Counted from the first letter of the stretch, positions 11,260-49,460 are shown. The stretch: 64,000 nucleotides of DNA from Casimicrobiaceae bacterium (GCA_036382945.1 DASVPH010000030.1:7387-71386); one strand, 5' to 3'. Made by a program: numbers and translations. The notes: a model not told the origin generated them from the sequence alone.

Positions 11260-11394
11260 AGGTCGCCGGCCGAATCGCGAAGCTCGCGGCGCCTCCAAGG
11301 CCGGCAGGACGCACGGCGCGGGCCGCTTGACCGCCTCCACAGCGACGAAGATACTTCCAGCCGTGTTGCCTCCGTGGCAGCGGAAGGGGGATGG

Positions 11395-12540
11395 ATGAGC
11401 CGCTTGAGCGTCCTGATTCTCTCCGTACTGGTTGTCGGCTGCGCGACCGTGCCGGCGCCGCAGCCGAACCCCCTGTTCCGAGATCAGCTCTTCGCCCCTG
11501 CGTCGCAGCGCATCAGCGCCGACGACGTGTTCGCGTTGAGCGACGACATGCGCAACTACCTCCGCACCGAGATTGCCGACCAGCTTCGCTTCGAGGGTCC
11601 GCTGCGCGGACTCGTCGATGCGCTCTACAGCAAGGGCCAGCTCAAGCTCGAATACGACGCGGAGATCACGCGGAATGCGGCGCAGACCTTCGCCGCCCGG
11701 GCCGGAAACTGTCTGTCGCTGGTCATCATGAGCGCGGCGCTCGCGAAGGAGGTCGGGCTGACGGTTCGCTACCAGCAGGTGCTCGTCGATGACGCCTGGA
11801 GTCGGAGCGGCGACATGTACTTTTCAAGCGCTCACGTGAACCTGACGCTCGGCACGATCCAGCGCGAGCGCGTCCTCGACGAATCGAACGCGGTGATGAC
11901 GATCGATTTCCTGCCGCAGCAGGACATCCGGGGCCTGCGCTTGCGCGCGCTCGAGGAACAGACCATCGTCGCGATGTACATGAACAACCGGGCCGCCGAA
12001 TCGCTCGCGCGCGGGCAGGTGGATGATGCTTATTGGTATGCGCGCGAAGCCATCGAACGCGACCCGAAGTTCCTGAGCGCCTACAACACGCTGGGGCTCA
12101 CCTACCGCCATCACGGCAATCTTCCGGAGGCCGAACAGGTGCTCGCCCGCGTCCTCGAGCTCGAGCCGGCCAACACGGAGGTCATGTCGAACCTGGCGCT
12201 CGTGCTGCGCGACGAGGGTCGGATCGCGGAAGCCGAAGCCTTGACCCGCAAGCTGCAGCAGTTGCAGCCGTATCCGCCGTTCTACTTCTTCAACCTCGGC
12301 ATGGCGGCGATGCGCGAGCGCGACTACAGGAAGGCGCGGGATCTGTTCACCAAGGAGCTCGAGCGCGACGCCTACTACCACGAGTTCCACTTCTGGCTCG
12401 CGGCCGCGTACCTTGGCCTCGGCGACACCAAGCAGGCGCGCGCGCAGCTCGAGCTTGCGCTGCAGAACAGCTCGACCCGCAAGGAGCACGACCTGTACGC
12501 GGCGAAGCTCGATCGCATCAGCCCACACCGCACGCAGTAG
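11395..12540 (+). CDS. TPR-repeat lipoprotein with transglutaminase-like N-domain
   Basis: Lipobox LVVGC after MSRLSVLILSV, with GGAAGGGGG upstream. GNC...SAH resembles a transglutaminase-like core. The C-terminal half has TPR repeats. Confidence 0.75.
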   Translation: MSRLSVLILSVLVVGCATVPAPQPNPLFRDQLFAPASQRISADDVFALSDDMRNYLRTEIADQLRFEGPLRGLVDALYSKGQLKLEYDAEITRNAAQTFAARAGNCLSLVIMSAALAKEVGLTVRYQQVLVDDAWSRSGDMYFSSAHVNLTLGTIQRERVLDESNAVMTIDFLPQQDIRGLRLRALEEQTIVAMYMNNRAAESLARGQVDDAYWYAREAIERDPKFLSAYNTLGLTYRHHGNLPEAEQVLARVLELEPANTEVMSNLALVLRDEGRIAEAEALTRKLQQLQPYPPFYFFNLGMAAMRERDYRKARDLFTKELERDAYYHEFHFWLAAAYLGLGDTKQARAQLELALQNSSTRKEHDLYAAKLDRISPHRTQ

Positions 12541-25682: not shown

Positions 25683-25835
25683 ATGAAGGTGGTTGTGAGA
25701 ACTCTCCTCGCCGCGCTGGTGCTCGGCGTACTCGCCGGTTGCGCCACGACGACGACGATCGATGCTCCGTACTACCACTATCGCGGCTACATCGGTCCGG
25801 ACGGCATCGATTACCGGTTCAGCAATCGATACTGA
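25683..25835 (+). CDS. small lipoprotein (50 aa), absent from the ORF track
   Basis: AGGAGG lies 6 nt upstream of the ATG. Sequence is MKVVVRTLLAALVLGVLAGC|ATTTTIDAPYYHYRGYIGPDGIDYRFSNRY with lipobox LAGC. A terminator follows. Confidence 0.55.
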   Translation: MKVVVRTLLAALVLGVLAGCATTTTIDAPYYHYRGYIGPDGIDYRFSNRY

Positions 25836-26170: not shown

Positions 26171-28531
26171 CTATATCGTCAGCTTGCGCAGCATCTCCGG
26201 GTTCTTGATCACCGCCTTCTGCCGGCCGACCGGAGCGCCGTACAAGCCGGCGGGCGGATTGGTTTCGAGCCGGTTCAGCACCGAAGCCTGGGTGCAGCGC
26301 GAGTCAAACGTGACCGACACCCGGTCTGCGTTGACGCCACCGAGGCCGAAACAGGTCTGGCCGAGCTTCGCGTTGAGCGGCTTGAGCACGCCGTTCGCGA
26401 CGATGTCGCCCGGATCGCCGGTCGCCGCAGCCTGCAGCTCGTAGAGGCGCGGTTTGGCCGGGGGGCGCGCGATGGCCGCGATCAGCTCGGGCAGGCCGAG
26501 GAGCTCGCGCGCGAGCAGCTCCTCCGCGGCCGCGTCGGGCATGCCGGTGACAAGCAGCCTGATCGGCCGGCTCGTGACACTCGCGTGCTGCACGAAGAAC
26601 TCGCGCGAGAACTCGTCGGCGATCTTCGCGCCGACCGCCCGCAGCGCCTCTTCCTCGCTGGCCCAGCTCCCGACGCCTTTGGGCAGCGCCGTGTTGTAGT
26701 AGATCTCCTCGCCCGTCTCGCGATCCACGCCCTTCACCGTCCACGAGGTGAGCGCGTATTTCGTCACCGTGAGACCGGAGGCTTGCAGGCGCCTGGAAAG
26801 CCTCTTGATCTGTGCTTCGCCGAGCACCGCCACGTCGGCGCTCTTGCCGCTGTCGCCGGCGCCCTGCACCCACGTGCGAAAGCCGAACGCCTTGATGCGC
26901 TCCTTCAAGATGTTCTCGGCGACCGGGGAAGGCTGCGGCGGAGCATCCGGCCGATCGGCGTCGCGCACCGTGATCTGCACCGACACCTTCGGATCGCCGC
27001 TGGCGCGAATAAGCTCGACGCGCTCGTCGCGCGACATCTGGTTGAGCGACTTCTGGACGGCCTTGACGTTGACCAGCGCTTCGGTCGTGATCGACATCAG
27101 CCCGTCCTTGCCCAGGCGCGGCTCGCTCTCGCGCACCACGGCGGTGATGTAGTTGCTGCTGTTCGCGAGAAGGCGCTCCTTGAGCAGGTCGTAGTTCTTG
27201 GCGAACGAGCTCGCGTCGAGCAGGAGAGCCACCGCCTTGGCGACGACCTGGCTCTTGGAGTCCAGCCGCAAATCGCTCTGCAGCAGCGCCTGGTCGCCCT
27301 GGTAACGCGGATCGCTCGGATCGATCAGGCCCACCGCGGCGATCCGCAGCGTTCCAGGCTCGGATTCGGGTGTCGCCGCCGTCGCGCCCGGCGCGGGCGG
27401 GGTTGCGGACGGCGAGGCGGGCGCTGCGCGGCTCGCCATGGACATGGGCATCGCCGGTGGCTGCGCCGATTTGGCGCTATCGGTCGCTTGGCGCGGAAAG
27501 ATGAACCATGCTACGGCACCCACGACGACGGCTGCCGCCACGGCGACGATCGGGACTGCGGCGCTGCGCGCCGTCTTGGGCGGCGGTGCGGCCGCGGTCG
27601 ACGTCTGCGCCGAGAGATTGACGGCGGCCGCCGTGTTGGCCAGGGTCGCCTCTGCGGCGGCAACGAGCGTCGGGTCGGAATGCCCGGCAGACGTCGCCGA
27701 GGCGATGCGCGAGGCCGTTGCCGCCGCGCGCATCGCCTCGGCAAACTCCTGCGCGCTCTGGAAGCGCTCCTCAGCGCGCTTGGCCATCGCTTTGTTCACC
27801 ACCGCGTCCATCGCCGGCGGGAGCTGAACGTTGAGCGTGGAGGGCGGCAGCGGCTCTTCCTTGAGCACTTTCTGCATGGTCGTCGCCGCCGATCCGGCGA
27901 AGGGTTTCTCCCCGGTCAGGAACTGGTAGAGCACCACACCTGCCGAGAACAGGTCCGAGCGTGCGTCCACCGGCAGGCCCATGATCTGCTCGGGCGACAT
28001 GTAGCTCGGCGTGCCCATCACCGTGCCGACCTGCGTCAGGTTCGACGATTCGATGTGCGCGATCCCGAAATCGGCGACCTTCACCGAGCCATCGGGAAGC
28101 AGGAAGATGTTCGCGGGCTTGACATCGCGGTGGATCACGCCCTGGCGATGCGAGTAGTCGAGCGCGCTGAGGATCTGCGTCATGATCCGCACGATCTCGG
28201 CGATCCCGAAGCGCTCGTTCGCGTCGAAGCAGCGCTTGAGCTCGCGACCCTGGACGAACTCCATGGCGATGAACCAGGCGCCGTCTTCCTCGCCGAAGTC
28301 GTAGATCGATACGATGTTGGGGTGATTGAGCCGGCCCGCCGCCTGGGCTTCGCGGCGGAAGCGGGCGATCACCGCGGCCGCGTCTTCGCCGGCGAGCTGG
28401 TCCGAACGGATCGTTTTGAGCGCGACGATGCGCTTGATCATGGGATCGTAGCCCTCGTAGACCACGCCCATCGCGCCACGTCCGAGCTCGCGTCGGATCT
28501 CGTATTTGCCGATGCTCTCCTGCTCTGCCAT
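26171..28531 (-). CDS. Hanks-type Ser/Thr protein kinase with TM helix and large periplasmic domain
   Basis: GRGAMGVVY, VALK, HRDVKPAN, DFG and GTPSYMSPE. TM helix at about aa 324-345 (AVPIVAVAAAVVVGAVAWFIF), then ~440 aa extracytoplasmic. Confidence 0.9.
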   Translation of the reverse strand: MAEQESIGKYEIRRELGRGAMGVVYEGYDPMIKRIVALKTIRSDQLAGEDAAAVIARFRREAQAAGRLNHPNIVSIYDFGEEDGAWFIAMEFVQGRELKRCFDANERFGIAEIVRIMTQILSALDYSHRQGVIHRDVKPANIFLLPDGSVKVADFGIAHIESSNLTQVGTVMGTPSYMSPEQIMGLPVDARSDLFSAGVVLYQFLTGEKPFAGSAATTMQKVLKEEPLPPSTLNVQLPPAMDAVVNKAMAKRAEERFQSAQEFAEAMRAAATASRIASATSAGHSDPTLVAAAEATLANTAAAVNLSAQTSTAAAPPPKTARSAAVPIVAVAAAVVVGAVAWFIFPRQATDSAKSAQPPAMPMSMASRAAPASPSATPPAPGATAATPESEPGTLRIAAVGLIDPSDPRYQGDQALLQSDLRLDSKSQVVAKAVALLLDASSFAKNYDLLKERLLANSSNYITAVVRESEPRLGKDGLMSITTEALVNVKAVQKSLNQMSRDERVELIRASGDPKVSVQITVRDADRPDAPPQPSPVAENILKERIKAFGFRTWVQGAGDSGKSADVAVLGEAQIKRLSRRLQASGLTVTKYALTSWTVKGVDRETGEEIYYNTALPKGVGSWASEEEALRAVGAKIADEFSREFFVQHASVTSRPIRLLVTGMPDAAAEELLARELLGLPELIAAIARPPAKPRLYELQAAATGDPGDIVANGVLKPLNAKLGQTCFGLGGVNADRVSVTFDSRCTQASVLNRLETNPPAGLYGAPVGRQKAVIKNPEMLRKLTI

Positions 28532-28600
28532 CGCCCGCTCCCAAGCCCGAAAACGGCGACGCCGGCGGCGCCGGCGTCGCGAACCCGCACCCTCAACCGA

Positions 28601-29437
28601 TCACTTGTACTTGTTGTCGATATCCCACACCGATTTCTGCACGAGGCGCTGCACCATGGTGTCGAGCGACACGCCGCCCTGCTGCGACTGGGAAACGCCG
28701 AGCGCCCCCGACGAGGTCGCGCCGATCTCCATCTTTTCCTCGGTGTAACCGGTGGCGACCTGCTCGGTGGTCTCGGCGTTGATGATCTTGTAGCGCATGC
28801 CGATGACCCAGACGCTGGTCGCCTCGTTCGAACGCACCGAGCCCACCGCGGTGCCGCCCAGCGCACCGGCTTCGGCTCCGCCGCGCGAGCCACTGAACGC
28901 GCCCAGGATCCCCACCATCTGCCCGAGCGTGCGGCCGTCGAACCCCTGTTGAGCCGCAGCGACCTGTTCGGTCTTGAGGATGTCGAATTTCACGACGTAC
29001 TTGGTGGTTTTGAGCTTGCCCATGCGCAACATCTTGCGCGCTGAGTCCTGGTCGCCCAAGTTGTAGGCGAGCTCGAATTCCTTGAGCAGCGGGCCCAGGT
29101 TCGAACGCTCCAGCACCGTGAAGTTGGCGCTGGACAGCTCGACCTCGCCGAAGTCCGCGATGTTGTTGGCCGTGAACTTCTGCAGGAACGTCGCATTGTT
29201 GCTCTTGATCTCGCCGGGGATCACGATCACCGCCGGTCCTTTCTTGCCGGCGTTGGTGTACGTGACCGGCTGATAGATCGTCTGGTCGGCCGCGGCGTTC
29301 GCCTTCTGCGAGGTCTCTTTGCCGGCGGTCGGCGACGGGTTGCCCCACGTCGGCTGGGCGGAGGCGAGCGAGGCCGCCGCGAAGAGCGCCGCCCCGAGCA
29401 GGTACTTGGAGATGTCGACTGACGCGCGATGTTTCAT
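28601..29437 (-). CDS. CsgG/HfaB-like secreted protein (no lipobox)
   Basis: 278 aa with signal peptide ...AAASLASA|QP. VLERSNLGPLLKE and WVIGMRYKIINAETTEQV follow the CsgG-like pattern. Confidence 0.7.
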   Translation of the reverse strand: MKHRASVDISKYLLGAALFAAASLASAQPTWGNPSPTAGKETSQKANAAADQTIYQPVTYTNAGKKGPAVIVIPGEIKSNNATFLQKFTANNIADFGEVELSSANFTVLERSNLGPLLKEFELAYNLGDQDSARKMLRMGKLKTTKYVVKFDILKTEQVAAAQQGFDGRTLGQMVGILGAFSGSRGGAEAGALGGTAVGSVRSNEATSVWVIGMRYKIINAETTEQVATGYTEEKMEIGATSSGALGVSQSQQGGVSLDTMVQRLVQKSVWDIDNKYK

Positions 29438-29486
29438 GGCGATTGCTCCCTGTAGAGATCGGACCCCTTGCCAGATCCGAAGCGTT

Positions 29487-30173
29487 TTACTTCGCCGCCG
29501 GCTTGCGGGCAGAAGCCGGTCCGGCCCTGCGACAATAATCCGCGTAGAGTGCGGGTACCACCTCGTCCGCGTTCTCGTTGACCAGCGTCAGCGCCATGCG
29601 CTCGACGTTCGCTCCCGCATACGAGCTCGAGCTCGTTTCGGTGTCGGAAATGAGCCGACCGTCGCTGCCGTAGAGCGTGAACTTCATGTTCACCGACACC
29701 TGGTTGACCGCCATCATGGGATTGCGGGCGGCCTGCGACGAGATCAGCCCGCGCAGCACGAAGCTCGCCCCGAGGCGCTTCGAAGCGCTGAGCATGGCGT
29801 CCGGGTCGTTCCTGAAGTAGGCGTCGATCTCGGCTTGCGCGATCTGCCGGCGGATTTCCTCGGGCGTATAGGTGCGAAGCCCGAGCGCGCGCAGCCGCGC
29901 GTTGATCGACTGGAAGTGCGGGCCGTAGTTCTGCTGCTGCGCTGCAATATAGCCGTTCGACTGCCGCTCGCCGATCACCAGCATGATCTTCTTGCCCTTG
30001 AGCTCGGCGCGGCACGGCGTTGAGAGCTGTTCGGCGATGCGATCCTGGCGCGCCTCCTGCTCGAGCCGGTCGGACTCGTCGGGTTGCGAGAACTTGAAGC
30101 CTTGAGCGAGCGCCGGTCCCGACGCAAGCATGGCGAGCGCAACGAGCGTCGGCAGGACAGGTCCTATTCGCAT
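29487..30173 (-). CDS. secreted hypothetical protein (228 aa)
   Basis: Start at MRIGPVLPTLVALAMLASGPALAQG (signal peptide). Same strand, 49 nt upstream of the CsgG-like gene. Confidence 0.6.
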   Translation of the reverse strand: MRIGPVLPTLVALAMLASGPALAQGFKFSQPDESDRLEQEARQDRIAEQLSTPCRAELKGKKIMLVIGERQSNGYIAAQQQNYGPHFQSINARLRALGLRTYTPEEIRRQIAQAEIDAYFRNDPDAMLSASKRLGASFVLRGLISSQAARNPMMAVNQVSVNMKFTLYGSDGRLISDTETSSSSYAGANVERMALTLVNENADEVVPALYADYCRRAGPASARKPAAK

Positions 30174-30351
30174 CGGTTTGGGTCGTAGCGCCGGTCGGGC
30201 GGGGGCCATCAAAAGCTTTCGCAGGTTAGCCCAACGCCAACCGGAAATCCATAGGACTATTCGACAACGCGGTAGACGCGCAGCAAGCCCCGCGCCCCAA
30301 GCCTCGCCGAGCGCTCGGAGCGGGTCCCTCTGTACAACGTGTAGCGCTCGA

Positions 30352-45201: not shown

Positions 45202-46590
45202 TCACTCGAACTCGATGAAGCCGACTTCGCGGAGGAACGCGCCGCGCTCCTGGCTGCCGAGGTGATCGGCGACGAGCTGGACGAATTGCTGGCGATTCGC
45301 CGCTTTCTGGGCAGCCTTGCGCGTCACGACCTTGGCGATCGGGCCCAAGTACACCGTGAGCCGCGACGTCGTCTCCTCGACGAACGCCGGGTCGAGCGGC
45401 GCCAGCGCTTCCTGGTTGCCCGAGAACGAGCGCAGCTGCGGCGGCAGCGTCCCGCGCACGCTCGTGGCCGCCGGCCGGGTGCTCGAACGCTCCGCCGCGG
45501 CGCGCTGCAACCCGTCGATGAATCTCTGGCGCACCTCGGGGTCGGTGATGCTGTCGGAGATCAGCGCGTAGAGCTCGGAGGTATCCCGCGACTTCGCCGC
45601 AGCCTTCTTCACCATCACCCGCGCCATCGGCCCGACCAGGTCGGCGAGCTCGCGCTCGATGGTGTGCAGCGTGGTGTCGTCCCAGACCGGCGGGCTTTGA
45701 GCCTGCAGCGTCACCGCGGCCAGATTGATCTCGGTGGCGTCCTGCATCTCGCGCTTTCCGGAAAGCTCGGGATCGAGCGCGAGGCGAAGCGCCCGGTTGA
45801 AGGCCTTGGCGTTCTGGAAGCGCGCCGCGCAATCCTTGGCGAGCGCGGTTTGCACCACCGCGTCGAGCGTCGGCGAGATCGAAAGCTTGGAGATCGCGGA
45901 GGGCGGGCGGGGATCCTCATAGCAGATTTTGAAGGCGATCGCCTCGATCGAGCCCGAGAACGGCTTCTCGCCGGTGAGCAGCTCGTAGAGAACCACGCCC
46001 ACGCTGAACAGGTCGGAACGCCGATCGATCTCCTTTCCCTGGCACTGCTCCGGCGACATGTACGACGGCGTCCCCATGACCATGCCGGCGTTGGTCAGGT
46101 TCGAGGTGTCGATGCGTGCGATCCCGAAGTCGGCGACCTTGAGCGCGCCGCTGCCGGTGAGGATCAGGTTGGCGGGCTTGACGTCGCGGTGCACCACCCC
46201 GCGCTCGTGCGCGAAGTCGAGCGCCAGCAGCAACTGCGAGGTGATGGCGACGATCTGGCCGATGTCGAAGGTCGCCTTGCGGTTCAGGTACTCGCGCAAC
46301 CCCGTGCCTTCGACGTACTCCATGGCGATGAAAGCGTTGCGCTCGTCCTCGCCGTATTCGTAGACGCTGACGATGTTCGGATGCAGCAGGCGTCCGGCGG
46401 CCTTCGCCTCGTTCTGGAAGCGGGCCATCACCTGCGCGGCGAGGTCCGGGTCGACCAGATCCTTGCGCACGGTCTTCACCGCCACCACGCGCTCGATGCC
46501 CGGATCGAACGCCTTGTACACGACCCCCATCGCGCCCTTGCCGAGCACGCTCTGGATCAGGTACTTGCCGATTTTTTCCGGTTCGCTCAT
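45202..46590 (-). CDS. Hanks-type Ser/Thr protein kinase, soluble, with C-terminal tandem repeat
   Basis: GKGAMGVVY, VAVK, HRDVKPAN, DFG and GTPSYMSPE, with no TM segment. Two ~55-aa repeats are centred on LVGPMARVMVKKAA and LGPIAKVVTRKAA. Confidence 0.9.
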   Translation of the reverse strand: MSEPEKIGKYLIQSVLGKGAMGVVYKAFDPGIERVVAVKTVRKDLVDPDLAAQVMARFQNEAKAAGRLLHPNIVSVYEYGEDERNAFIAMEYVEGTGLREYLNRKATFDIGQIVAITSQLLLALDFAHERGVVHRDVKPANLILTGSGALKVADFGIARIDTSNLTNAGMVMGTPSYMSPEQCQGKEIDRRSDLFSVGVVLYELLTGEKPFSGSIEAIAFKICYEDPRPPSAISKLSISPTLDAVVQTALAKDCAARFQNAKAFNRALRLALDPELSGKREMQDATEINLAAVTLQAQSPPVWDDTTLHTIERELADLVGPMARVMVKKAAAKSRDTSELYALISDSITDPEVRQRFIDGLQRAAAERSSTRPAATSVRGTLPPQLRSFSGNQEALAPLDPAFVEETTSRLTVYLGPIAKVVTRKAAQKAANRQQFVQLVADHLGSQERGAFLREVGFIEFE

Positions 46591-46612
46591 CGCAGTGTGC
46601 GCCGCTCGGCGG

Positions 46613-47485
46613 TTACGCCTCGAGCATCTTGATCGCCTGTACCAGGCTCTTGTTCATCCGCGCTAGCGCCTGGGTGAGCACGCCGATCTCGTCCTTGCTC
46701 TTCGACTTGAACTCTCCGCTCTCCAGGTGGCCGAGGCTCACGTCGTCGGCGAGCTTCGCCAGGTGCTTGACCCGCTGGACCACGATCGAGTGCAGCATGA
46801 CGTTGATCAGGATGAAGGTGACGACGAGCACGAGAGTGAGCAGCAGCATGAACACCTTGAACGTAGTGTTGGCGCGTTGGATCGGGAGCGCGCTGGGCAC
46901 GGAGACGATCTGGGCGCCGATGATCTCGTTTAACTTCCAGCCGAAGCCGTTGGCCGGCCCGTAGAGCGCGACCATGGTCTTCGGCGCCTCGGCGACCGTG
47001 TTGTGGCAGGCGAGGCACGCGCCGTCCTTGATCTGGATCGGCCGCGCCAGGTAGAGCGAGCGCCCGGCGGGCGTTTCCCGCTCGCCGGTGAGCTCACCCT
47101 TGACCGCTCCGTTGCGAAACTGGTTGACCACGTCGGCCTCCCAGTCGGTCGCGCGATCGCGCGGATTGGTCGGGTTGAGCGTGGCCTCCTTGTAGCTGTA
47201 ATCGGGGTACTTCTTGCGCAGATCGTTGAACTGCTCGGTCGCGGCGTACGCCGGCACCGACTGCGGCAGGAAGGAGTACTTGAGCTGCGTCTCGAGCAGG
47301 GGCTTGATCTGGGTGTTGGTATAGGTGCGCGAGGACAGTGCGGATTCCATCATCACCCGCGCGTTGTCGAGGATCTCCTCGCGGGCGTTGGCCCGGAGCA
47401 CGCCGTAGGAAACCAAAGCGGTGATCGCGAAGCCGATGACGAACACCGCCAGCAGCGCAATATTGAATTTCCACATCAGCTTCAT
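46613..47485 (-). CDS. DUF3365 (Tll0287-like, CxxCH) periplasmic domain - TM - HAMP protein
   Basis: 290 aa: TM1, a periplasmic domain with CLACH, TM2, then HAMP (DEIGVLTQALARMN). It ends right after HAMP. GAGAGGGGA lies upstream of the ATG. Confidence 0.8.
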   Translation of the reverse strand: MKLMWKFNIALLAVFVIGFAITALVSYGVLRANAREEILDNARVMMESALSSRTYTNTQIKPLLETQLKYSFLPQSVPAYAATEQFNDLRKKYPDYSYKEATLNPTNPRDRATDWEADVVNQFRNGAVKGELTGERETPAGRSLYLARPIQIKDGACLACHNTVAEAPKTMVALYGPANGFGWKLNEIIGAQIVSVPSALPIQRANTTFKVFMLLLTLVLVVTFILINVMLHSIVVQRVKHLAKLADDVSLGHLESGEFKSKSKDEIGVLTQALARMNKSLVQAIKMLEA

Positions 47486-47513
47486 GCGATCCCCTCTCGT
47501 GCTCGCCGCACGC

Positions 47514-48422
47514 TCATTTCTTGTTGTCGCCGCCGAACGGCCATCGGAATCTCGGTTCCACCTTCTCCGCTGCCTTGGGCGGCGGCTCGGGCGGAGGCGG
47601 CGCGACCACGGCCTGCCACTCCGGGTACGCTTGGAGCTTCGCCATGACCGGCGCGCGAAAGTCGGGATCGGAAAGCCGCGGCTGCAGCCGCTTGAGAAAC
47701 ATCCGCCGGTACGGACCGGTGAGCCATGGCTCGGCTTCGACGTAGCTGATCGGTCGGTCGGCGGCAAGCTGCGCGCGGACCACCTGATATTGCGCGGCGC
47801 GCGCGGGCAGCGCGTCCCGGAAAGGCCGCGGCATCGCGGCGACGAAGCTCTGCGGTGGGGCACCCGCCGTCGCGAACGGCCGATCGGCGGCGCGCAGCGC
47901 GAAATCGCCGCTCTTGACGTCGTGCGCGGCGCCGTCTGCTCCGCTCTTGCCCGGCTCCAGCATCTTCGCGTTTCCCGCTTCGACGAAAGCCTCGAGCGCA
48001 TCGCTCGACGCGTGCACCACCGCCACGGCATCGGCCGCGCTGAGCGCTCCGGCTGCGGTGCGCACCCGCAGCGCCGCGCCGGGCGGTTTGGCGGAGAGCT
48101 TCACCCAACCGGAAGGCAGGTACATTTCCGCGGGCGCCGCCCTGGCGCCTTCGCGGGTACCGGACGCAACCGCGAGAAGCGACGTCGGCCCGACGAAATT
48201 CACGATCGGCCCCGTGGCGAGCTCGACCTGAACCTGCGCGCGATCCGGCGCGTCGATCAGATCGCCGTCCTGCACGCGCGCCCCTTCGACGAGCTTGTAC
48301 CAGGTCGCGCCGCGCAGGATGCGCGCGTTGCCGTCGAGGATCGTGACCACCCCGACCTCGGCGCCGTAACACAGGGCGGACGCGAGAAGGAAAAAACACC
48401 CGGCCAGCCAAGTCGTCTTCAT
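47514..48422 (-). CDS. FecR-like secreted protein
   Basis: Signal peptide MKTTWLAGCFFLLASALCYGA. GNARILRGATWYKLVEGARVQDGDLI is a FecR-domain-like beta segment, and the tail is Pro-rich. Confidence 0.55.
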   Translation of the reverse strand: MKTTWLAGCFFLLASALCYGAEVGVVTILDGNARILRGATWYKLVEGARVQDGDLIDAPDRAQVQVELATGPIVNFVGPTSLLAVASGTREGARAAPAEMYLPSGWVKLSAKPPGAALRVRTAAGALSAADAVAVVHASSDALEAFVEAGNAKMLEPGKSGADGAAHDVKSGDFALRAADRPFATAGAPPQSFVAAMPRPFRDALPARAAQYQVVRAQLAADRPISYVEAEPWLTGPYRRMFLKRLQPRLSDPDFRAPVMAKLQAYPEWQAVVAPPPPEPPPKAAEKVEPRFRWPFGGDNKK

Positions 48423-48572
48423 CGCGGGACACCGCCTGATCGCCATCCAGAACGGCGGCGCGCGTTGGATACTAGGACGCGCGCTCGAAGACTGTCAACG
48501 TGATTATTCTCGGGCGGCGGGGCGAGCTGCGCCGGGCTTGGCCCGCGTGCCTTATACTTGTCCGCCGGGCCC

Positions 48573-49460
48573 ATGGAAAAAGCGCCGCGCAACCTCGCCG
48601 TGCTGTTCGCCGACATCAGCGGCAGCGCCAAGCTCTACGAAACGCTGGGCGACGCCGAGGCGCTCGCCACCGTCGAGCGCTGCCTCGCGATCATCGAGCA
48701 GGCGTGCGTCGACAGCGGCGGCCGGATCGTCAAGACGATCGGCGACGAAGTGATGGCGGTCTTTCACGCGGCCGACGGCGCGGCGCGCGCCGCGACCGAC
48801 ATGCAGGCGCGGATCTCCTCGCAGCGGACCGCGCGCGGCGCGCCGCTCGCGATCCACGTCGGCTTCAACTTCGGCCCGGTGCTCGAGGAAGGCAACGATG
48901 TGTTCGGCGACGCGGTCACCATCGCGGCGCGGCTGGCGAACCTCGCCCGCGGCGGCCAGGTGTTCACTTCCGCGCCGACGGTCGCCGAGCTGGCGCCGGG
49001 GCTGCGCGCCCGGACTCGCAGCCAGCAGGCGCACACCGTCAAGGGCAAGCAGAAGGACATCGATCTGTTCGAGCTGGTATGGCAGGAGACCGAGGACGAG
49101 CTGACGGCGCTCTCCACCCACGTCAAGCTCCGCCCCGCGCACCTCACGCTGACGCACGGCGAGCGCCGGATCGAGCTCTCCGAGGCAATGCCGGCGCTCT
49201 CCATCGGCCGCGATCTGCAGAACGACGTCGTAATCGCCGACCGCAAGGCTTCGCGCATGCACGCCCGCATCGAGCGGCGGCGCGACAAGTTCGTGCTGAT
49301 CGACCACAGCTCCAACGGGACCTACGTCACCGTGCAGGGCGAGGCCGAGATCCTCCTGCGCCGCGAGGAGTTGATCCTGCGCAACCGCGGCCAGATGAGC
49401 TTCGGCCACGCCTATCGGGACGATACGGCGGAGTTTCTCGGGTTCTCCTGCCTCGATTGA
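48573..49460 (+). CDS. class III adenylate/guanylate cyclase domain fused to FHA domain
   Basis: LFADISGS, KTIGDEVMAVF and FGDAVTIAARL (cyclase), then SIGRD..NDVVI.D...SR.HA.I......F.L.D..S.NGT (FHA). Confidence 0.85.
   Translation: MEKAPRNLAVLFADISGSAKLYETLGDAEALATVERCLAIIEQACVDSGGRIVKTIGDEVMAVFHAADGAARAATDMQARISSQRTARGAPLAIHVGFNFGPVLEEGNDVFGDAVTIAARLANLARGGQVFTSAPTVAELAPGLRARTRSQQAHTVKGKQKDIDLFELVWQETEDELTALSTHVKLRPAHLTLTHGERRIELSEAMPALSIGRDLQNDVVIADRKASRMHARIERRRDKFVLIDHSSNGTYVTVQGEAEILLRREELILRNRGQMSFGHAYRDDTAEFLGFSCLD

Follow-up and report, generated by a model that had tools for sequence, protein, structure and literature searches.

What a receptor kinase senses, and through which proteins, is a long-standing question for Gram-negative bacteria. 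Receptor-type Hanks kinases are common in these organisms, and for almost all of them the signals and periplasmic partners are unclear; TagQRST-PpkA is the main worked example. The question is raised in specific form by a 64-kb stretch of DNA from a Casimicrobiaceae bacterium (GCA_036382945.1 DASVPH010000030.1:7387-71386; hereafter "the window"), whose minus strand carries genes for two secreted proteins, termed A and B, and for a transmembrane Hanks-type Ser/Thr kinase with a large extracytoplasmic domain, the folded part of which is termed E. Is this kinase wired to A and B? Our analysis suggests that the triad is a putative trans-envelope Hanks-kinase sensor, a kind of system already known, whose underlying module of three envelope proteins had not been described before. 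One member of this protein set has been fused to a kinase, and the trio is probably a new way to inform the cytoplasm about the outer envelope's state.

The three open reading frames (ORFs) are separated by gaps of exactly 49 and 69 nucleotides, and a GGGAG Shine-Dalgarno sequence lies ahead of both B and the kinase gene. GenBank annotation agrees on all three proteins (A, HEX8009812.1; B, HEX8009811.1; kinase, HEX8009810.1), and the source is a metagenome-assembled genome (MAG) of an uncultured betaproteobacterium from soil. The frame of gene A stays open upstream of the ATG, as far as a TTG at 30212. A preliminary description of the locus, made from sequence alone, had proposed three same-strand genes with these gaps, and a kinase with a complete Hanks domain and one transmembrane helix. 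The ORF coordinates agree with the former proposal, and Pfam, the catalytic motifs and a Kyte-Doolittle analysis agree with the latter.

To assess conservation, we used one genome per species, which gave 242 stretches encoding a relative of B, and analyzed the best 80 loci, all of which are from Casimicrobiaceae or Betaproteobacteria MAGs. The order and spacing of A, B and the kinase gene are kept in 80/80 of these loci; the ectodomain is missing in four, all of them cut by contig ends. Co-occurrence in other genomes had been named beforehand as a check on the proposed coupling of a CsgG-fold protein and a second secreted protein to a transmembrane kinase, and at the level of genome organization this coupling is conserved throughout the set. 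Eighty soil and sediment metagenome loci were also retrieved by using the ectodomain, with genes counted only where the upstream sequence suffices. In loci that extend far enough, the kinase domain was found in 59/59, B in 40/42 and A in 32/33. Both surveys yielded nearest relatives alone (64-92% identity) rather than a wider phylogenetic sample, and more distant gene contexts were taken from eleven individually retrieved loci.

The genes around the trio vary. For example, the dienelactone hydrolase gene upstream of A in the window occurs there in only 6/80 genome loci. Because the trio is constant while its flanks are not conserved, the triad is the selected unit. B has 3494 database homologs, the top 120 of which share 85-94% identity, and the ectodomain has 633, of which the full-length ones carry a Pkinase domain; thus, these are real genes rather than chance ORFs. 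B is the most conserved protein of the three, and its family amounts to only 254 clusters at 50% identity (E-value <= 0.001, representative search).

The kinase matches PF00069 with an E-value of 6.7e-54 (183.5 bits versus a cut-off of 31.7) and has the motifs GRGAMG (G17-G22), VALK (K39), HRD134, DFG154 and SPE179. It is therefore a Hanks-type Ser/Thr kinase with a complete catalytic domain. An Ala/Thr/Ser-rich juxtamembrane segment (aa 270-323) leads into the transmembrane helix, and roughly 440 residues lie beyond the hydrophobic segment, beginning with a linker whose length differs across the family. The best NCBIfam model for the kinase is PknB/Stk1 (NF033483), which is matched only over aa 8-356, with 341 bits versus a cut-off of 450. 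No PASTA domain was detected by Pfam. A match of the ectodomain to a PASTA-type or other well-known sensor family would have pointed away from the proposed coupling, and searches of Pfam, NCBIfam and the PDB, the last with sequences and profiles, linked it to none of the known sensor families, among them PASTA, VWA and Cache.

A model of the ectodomain made with AlphaFold2 (AF2) from a 40-sequence alignment has a predicted local distance difference test (pLDDT) score of 79.8 and a predicted template-modeling score (pTM) of 0.71. After the disordered linker come three alpha/beta modules, and the C-terminal part is helical and contains two conserved Cys residues, C727 and C746, that form a pair in sequence. 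In a Foldseek search of this model against the PDB, no match reached an E-value of 1e-3. The weaker matches were LptE, DUF330, CadC (periplasmic domain), PelC (probability 1.0, target template-modeling (TM) score 0.52), anticodon-binding domains and CsgG; the best of them all fall into a single structural class, that of small alpha/beta domains from the periplasm. The preliminary description had likened the ectodomain to repeated CsgG/LpoB/FlgT-type modules. The modules are thus present in the model, and the likeness is plausible and weakly supported.

The main new result concerns the origin of E, which is revealed by loci that have no kinase gene. Desulfolutivibrio sulfoxidireducens (L081) encodes an A-like protein of 214 aa, a free-standing secreted E of 515 aa and a lipoprotein B. 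Trichloromonas acetexigens (L084) likewise has A, E and B (216, 459 and 252 aa) and no kinase, and the same arrangement is found in metagenome loci L086, L090 and L091. The free-standing E proteins bear signal peptides and are encoded between the A and B homologs. In phmmer searches, the kinase ectodomain matches free-standing E proteins (L081, L084 and L086) with E-values of 3e-88 to 4e-84, and A matches the first protein of the kinase-less trios at ~1e-45. Fused and free-standing E align end to end with 39-41% identity. Free-standing E is extended at its C terminus by ~30 aa, the last of which is always Phe (...VKNF, ...AASF, ...AGAF), whereas kinase-fused E ends in ...KKL-x-I, and the Cys pair is found in the fused forms only.

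Adjacent genes for A-, E- and B-like secreted proteins are thus present in 80/80 genome loci and in L081, L084, L086, L090 and L091. Because free-standing E of the kinase-less trio of Desulfobacterota shows full-length homology to the fused form, E is ancestrally one of the subunits of an A-E-B module. The kinase, transmembrane helix and linker were added to the N terminus of E in Betaproteobacteria as a lineage-specific fusion. Besides Casimicrobiaceae, kinase-fused E also occurs in the Rhodocyclales-like loci L087 and L089.

A and B have entered into fusions of their own. In Sulfuricystis multivorans (L083, AP018718.1, 4565-8903), two secreted Peptidase_C14 proteins are encoded ahead of B1 and B2, which lie in tandem, and the second of these caspase-like proteins ends in an A domain; the locus has neither E nor a kinase. 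In protein P0251, a lipoprotein B is fused to an FGE-sulfatase domain. A further candidate, P0270, in which a B domain is followed by the start of a Pkinase domain, was rejected as a true fusion, as it is probably a gene-call run-through of B into the kinase. Gene fusion and a fixed neighborhood are classical evidence that partners act together physically. On this evidence, A, B and E would be expected to act together, presumably in direct contact.

Several of these loci have additional secreted proteins. In L091 (7862-10993), two further proteins are encoded after A-E-B: one is truly CsgG/LpoB-like by Pfam, and the other is FlgT_N/LPP20-like. The operons of L081 (8812-12894) and L090 (7788-12137) continue with a TPR lipoprotein and family-less secreted proteins, and that of L090 also with an autotransporter; in L083, an autotransporter-domain gene lies farther upstream. 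The further secreted and lipoprotein genes after A-E-B in Desulfobacterota hint at a larger envelope structure. In L087 (6095-6430) and L089 (5078-5398), a Cys-rich secreted protein of 106-111 aa is encoded just upstream of A. This protein has faint defensin or Ole e 6-like matches and no equivalent in the window.

What kind of protein is B? The preliminary description called it CsgG/HfaB-like. CsgG is a nonameric, 36-stranded outer-membrane channel and a lipoprotein sorted to the outer membrane; its fold has an alpha/beta core, a C-terminal helix and a pair of beta-hairpins from which the transmembrane barrel is made. In the AF2 model, B has a strand-helix-strand-helices topology with two long hairpin arms, a Gly-rich tip between them and a C-terminal helix. 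Its pLDDT of 51.2 is low despite an alignment of 70 sequences (43-94% identity to B). A Foldseek search with this model returned CsgG 4uv3_A first (E-value 3.1e-7, probability 1.0, TM score 0.39-0.43); the 4uv3 and 4uv2 matches (3e-7 to 1e-5) were followed by HpaA, FlgT, GNA1162, PelC, CT253 and LpoB. Because the model is of low confidence, this result is read as evidence of fold class only.

By sequence, the likeness to CsgG is borderline. B scores 20.6 bits against the Pfam CsgG family PF03783, versus a cut-off of 20.8, over aa 102-155 and 50/210 profile positions, and 40/70 relatives of B match this family below threshold (E-value < 0.1; best 3.9e-5). A profile of the B family matched no CsgG chain in the PDB. 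When aligned by hhalign to an approximate E. coli CsgG sequence, the B family gave a probability of 26% over 21 residues, limited to the "F-x-V-L-E-R" alpha1-beta2 motif. In its predicted topology, best structural matches, weak PF03783 match and lipoprotein status in distant lineages, B resembles the CsgG/PelC/LpoB/FlgT/GNA1162 group. B is thus predicted to belong to the CsgG/PelC/LpoB fold superfamily as a remote member. The part of the earlier claim that concerns the fold therefore stands, but assignment to the CsgG family proper, or to its channels, is not established. A failure of B to match CsgG profiles had been named in advance as evidence against the proposal; although the match lies below threshold, neither this outcome nor the other two so named, on co-occurrence and on the ectodomain, applies outright.

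B has a signal peptidase (SPase) I-type signal peptide, cleaved between ASLASA and QP, and no lipobox, as had been proposed; a lipobox-like motif is found in 1/120 close homologs. The preliminary description presented this as a departure from canonical CsgG lipoproteins. The departure is real, but it is a loss of the lipid anchor in this lineage, because a classic lipobox is present in 94/116 distant B homologs (Desulfovibrionales, Desulfuromonadales, other Thermodesulfobacteriota and Rhodocyclales). Rhodocyclales-like relatives encode a non-lipidated B1 and a lipidated B2 in tandem; no second, lipidated B paralog was found within the window.

These features bear on whether B could be a true CsgG-type oligomeric secretion channel, with A as a periplasmic adaptor, the ectodomain capping or monitoring the channel, and the kinase reporting on secretion or gating it, in line with the secretion-status sensor that the preliminary description had considered alongside an envelope sensor. 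The top structural match is to the membrane-bound form of CsgG over ~280 columns, B equals CsgG in size and has the two long predicted arms and Gly-rich tip, and most distant B homologs are lipoproteins, as is CsgG. Possible cargo is encoded beside relatives, in the form of the small Cys-rich secreted protein (L087 and L089) and the autotransporter-domain proteins (L083 and L090). However, we judge a channel improbable. The putative membrane hairpins of B are rich in Gly, Ser and Gln, have no aromatic girdle and only weak hydrophobic alternation, and hairpin 2 is polar, so that convincing amphipathic transmembrane hairpins are lacking. B also lacks the lipid anchor that CsgG requires for outer-membrane targeting, and no curli genes (csgA/B/E/F-like) are among the neighbors of the triad. 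The Pfam, profile and hhalign results given above fall short of the CsgG family as well, and the TM scores of ~0.4 derive from a model with a pLDDT of 51.

Protein A is also secreted, with an SPase I-type signal peptide that ends in PALA before QGFKFS and no Cys at the cleavage site. The family alignment shows an invariant F-x-F motif at the mature N terminus and an invariant Cys pair, C54 and C214. In Pfam, A matches DUF2066 (E-value 0.012) and LpoB (PF13036; E-value 0.1, 12.9 bits versus a cut-off of 22.3). Among four free-standing A orthologs from other lineages, three have sub-threshold LpoB matches in the same profile region (E-values 0.016-0.034, 14.5-15.6 bits). With a score below the cut-off and no lipoprotein signal, A is not classified as LpoB. 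A weak match of this protein to the N-terminal segment of human MAT2A (E-value 0.008, 48 residues) was rejected as a local helix-strand resemblance. Searches of the PDB with A, B and E, as single sequences and as family profiles, gave nothing meaningful.

The recurrent LpoB matches raise another possibility, namely that peptidoglycan or envelope biogenesis is under the control of the module, much as PBP1B is activated across the periplasm by the outer-membrane protein LpoB, and that the kinase is a Gram-negative counterpart of PknB/StkP. B structurally matches the C-terminal domain of LpoB (4q6l), as well as PelC and GNA1162. The kinase resembles PknB/StkP in its N-terminal Hanks domain, single transmembrane helix and multi-module extracytoplasmic domain, and PknB/Stk1 is its best-scoring NCBIfam model. 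LpoB crosses the periplasm by a long disordered linker, a feature that the kinase linker recalls. We nevertheless regard this explanation as quite unlikely. All LpoB matches are below the cut-off, A has no lipobox, and its conserved disulfide pair and N-terminal F-x-F motif are absent from the LpoB family descriptions compared. No penicillin-binding protein (PBP) is linked to the locus, and neither PBP nor cell-wall genes are conserved beside the triad. Unlike PknB/StkP, the kinase is from a Gram-negative host, has no PASTA repeats, matches the NCBIfam model below threshold and over its catalytic half only, and has an ectodomain with dedicated, co-encoded protein partners.

A candidate reader of the kinase is provided by a gene for an adenylate/guanylate cyclase with a C-terminal FHA domain, which lies immediately downstream of the kinase gene, in convergent orientation, in 23/80 genome loci (L006, L008, L010 and 20 others, at about 11300-12460). 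The same gene is found in this position in L087 (11203-12126), L089 (10381-11277) and 12/57 metagenome loci. FHA domains bind phosphothreonine. Because of this property and because the gene recurrently adjoins the kinase gene, the FHA-cyclase is the best candidate reader, and it is plausible as the output of the kinase. In the window, the slot next to the triad is occupied by a methyltransferase gene, and a copy of the FHA-cyclase gene that is 52-59% identical to the triad-adjacent genes resides elsewhere, beside a second Hanks kinase gene. The recurrent neighbor, which points to a cytoplasmic output, also makes it very doubtful that the kinase fusion is an inner-membrane anchor or inside-out regulator whose phosphorylation controls assembly of A, B and E: the kinase-less, presumably functional module of Desulfobacterota would fit such a role, as would the joining of A to a caspase-like and of B to an FGE-sulfatase periplasmic enzyme, which suggests that these subunits are localization scaffolds, but the single-pass Hanks receptor kinases characterized so far all signal, to our knowledge, from outside to inside.

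Signaling inward from the envelope through such a kinase is not without precedent. Full-text literature searches on CsgG-like proteins with kinases, caspases or FGE-sulfatase, and on Casimicrobiaceae, returned no description of the module, in agreement with the earlier claim that no system linking a CsgG-like protein to Ser/Thr phosphorylation had been reported. However, envelope proteins have been linked to a Hanks kinase before. [quoted passage not shown] The phosphothreonine output of the PpkA pathway is read by the FHA protein Fha1, and the pathway responds to envelope perturbation or damage (PMC7817224). TagQRST-PpkA-Fha1 is the closest known logic to that of the triad, which likewise has a secreted pair, a single-pass Hanks kinase and, often, an adjacent FHA protein.

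The two systems differ in their parts. The TagQRST sensor proteins have no detectable sequence or domain relationship to A, B or E. The triad ectodomain has no VWA domain, and neither a TagS/T-like ABC transporter nor any T6SS gene is found beside the triad, which is flanked by unrelated housekeeping genes. Where Pseudomonas has a T6SS scaffold as FHA protein, the candidate partner here is a nucleotide cyclase, and it adjoins the triad in relatives and lies 19 kb off in the window. Moreover, the sensor domain of the triad kinase is itself a former free-standing subunit of the complex. The triad is thus not a member of the PpkA/TagQRST pathway.

Another conserved element is a GC-rich hairpin between B and the kinase gene, with an 11-bp GC stem and a short U-tract after it. 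The pattern occurs once in the window (0 expected), and 51/80 genome and 50/80 metagenome loci have exactly one such hairpin each, in every case in the spacer that follows B and precedes the kinase gene. Its loops are variable, and some stems show compensatory changes. It was missed by the terminator scan because its T-tract has four T rather than five. From its sequence and position, the hairpin is probably a leaky terminator or attenuator, or a transcript stabilizer.

Taken as a whole, these observations lead us to lean toward a model in which an assembly of A, B and E senses the state of the envelope and conveys it through tethered E to kinase clustering and FHA readers. A, B and E would be subunits of an old periplasmic or outer-membrane-proximal module of LpoB/PelC/CsgG-type alpha/beta domains that assemble near the outer membrane. 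Their periplasmic location is supported by the signal peptides, the invariant Cys pair of A and the conserved Cys pair of fused E. E, tethered to the inner membrane by its flexible linker, would dock onto A and B or assemble with them, and this event would alter the clustering or orientation of kinase molecules in the inner membrane. Clustering may then control how the kinase molecules trans-autophosphorylate, both at the activation loop and in the juxtamembrane segment rich in Thr and Ser. The resulting phosphothreonines would be read by FHA proteins, with the FHA-cyclase as the best candidate, which would convert the envelope state into a cyclic-nucleotide signal. The terminator-like hairpin, if leaky, could ensure that A and B outnumber the kinase.

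Several observations weigh against this model. In hhalign comparisons among A, B and E, the probabilities are not significant (19%, 5% and 0.4%), so that sequence gives no ground for deriving the three from one ancestor, and the notion of a shared fold depends on weak matches in the structure and Pfam searches, including those of the low-confidence B model (pLDDT 51). The FHA-cyclase of the window is 19 kb from the triad and beside a different kinase; its link to the triad kinase is therefore indirect. A PP2C phosphatase was not identified. The hairpin has only four U in its U-tract, and its folding energy is unexceptional for a GC-rich spacer (z = -0.96), so its interpretation depends on positional conservation; it could be a stabilizer or a protein-binding palindrome instead of a terminator. 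Finally, every kinase-fused example is from uncultured or little-studied Betaproteobacteria.

A more ambitious version, which we put forward tentatively as a possibility, is that A-E-B constitutes an undescribed envelope complex that extends from Desulfobacterota to Betaproteobacteria and whose subunits have repeatedly been captured as sensor or targeting modules by different signaling enzymes: E by a Hanks kinase, A by a caspase-like protease and B by an FGE-sulfatase domain. In Casimicrobiaceae, capture may have created a new trans-envelope pathway in which the assembly or integrity of an outer-envelope ring is translated into Ser/Thr phosphorylation and then, through the FHA-cyclase, into a cyclic nucleotide. 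If the FHA-cyclase link is true, envelope sensing, Ser/Thr phosphorylation and cyclic-nucleotide signaling would be joined in a single pathway.

The triad lineage is abundant in soils, and A, E and B belong to no Pfam or NCBIfam family and have no solved relative detectable by sequence. Because the sensor domain is a former subunit that is still encoded beside the other two, the locus offers a testable hypothesis of who binds whom. With named partners and a fusion history, sensing by a Gram-negative receptor Ser/Thr kinase becomes directly testable. The basic function of the module can be studied as well, because it is carried by the cultured organisms D. sulfoxidireducens, T. acetexigens and S. 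multivorans, in the last case with a caspase link. The coordinates of the triad and of a second Ser/Thr signaling cluster in the window are collected in Table 1.

Table 1. Features of the triad and of the second signaling cluster, in window coordinates
Feature	Coordinates	Strand	Description
Gene A	29487..30173	-	228 aa counted from ATG
Gene B	28601..29437	-	278 aa, secreted; predicted CsgG/PelC/LpoB fold superfamily
Kinase gene	26171..28531	-	786 aa
Hanks Ser/Thr kinase catalytic domain	27758..28504	-	aa 10-258, Pfam Pkinase; predicted cytoplasmic
Transmembrane helix, single	27494..27562	-	about aa 324-346; sole Kyte-Doolittle hydrophobic segment (about aa 319-349)
Periplasmic linker	27353..27493	-	~47 aa, Pro/Ala/Ser-rich, predicted disordered; AF2 pLDDT <50 at ectodomain residues 1-41
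Domain E	26174..27352	-	aa 394-786, ~390 aa folded; AF2 and homology
GC-rich hairpin	28546..28580	-	GCGACGCCGGC-GCC-GCCGGCGUCGC, then CGUUUUCGGG; between B and kinase gene; sequence and fold
Second Hanks kinase	45202..46590	-	462 aa, soluble; 51% identical to triad kinase catalytic domain
Tll0287-like haem protein	46613..47485	-	CxxCH, membrane; second Ser/Thr signaling cluster
Secreted protein	47514..48446	-	310 aa, no family; second Ser/Thr signaling cluster
Adenylate/guanylate cyclase-FHA gene	48558..49460	+	Divergent; second Ser/Thr signaling cluster (45202..49460)

The genes that flank the triad in the window are unrelated to each other and to the triad. Upstream, the dienelactone hydrolase gene is accompanied by genes for a GT2 glycosyltransferase and for an OPT transporter, and the downstream flank encodes the methyltransferase, an AlaX-like editing protein, a GNAT protein and a HAD hydrolase. 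No match to PADLOC defense models, no credible Rfam match and no sigma-70 promoter were found in the corresponding scans. Downstream of the kinase gene, the plus strand carries a small ORF (25683..25835) that looks unannotated and has a good AGGAGG ribosome-binding site. Its product is a lipoprotein of 50 aa (MKVVVRTLLAALVLGVLAGC...). The ORF and the kinase gene are convergent, and ~335 nucleotides of non-coding sequence lie between the ORF and the kinase stop codon.

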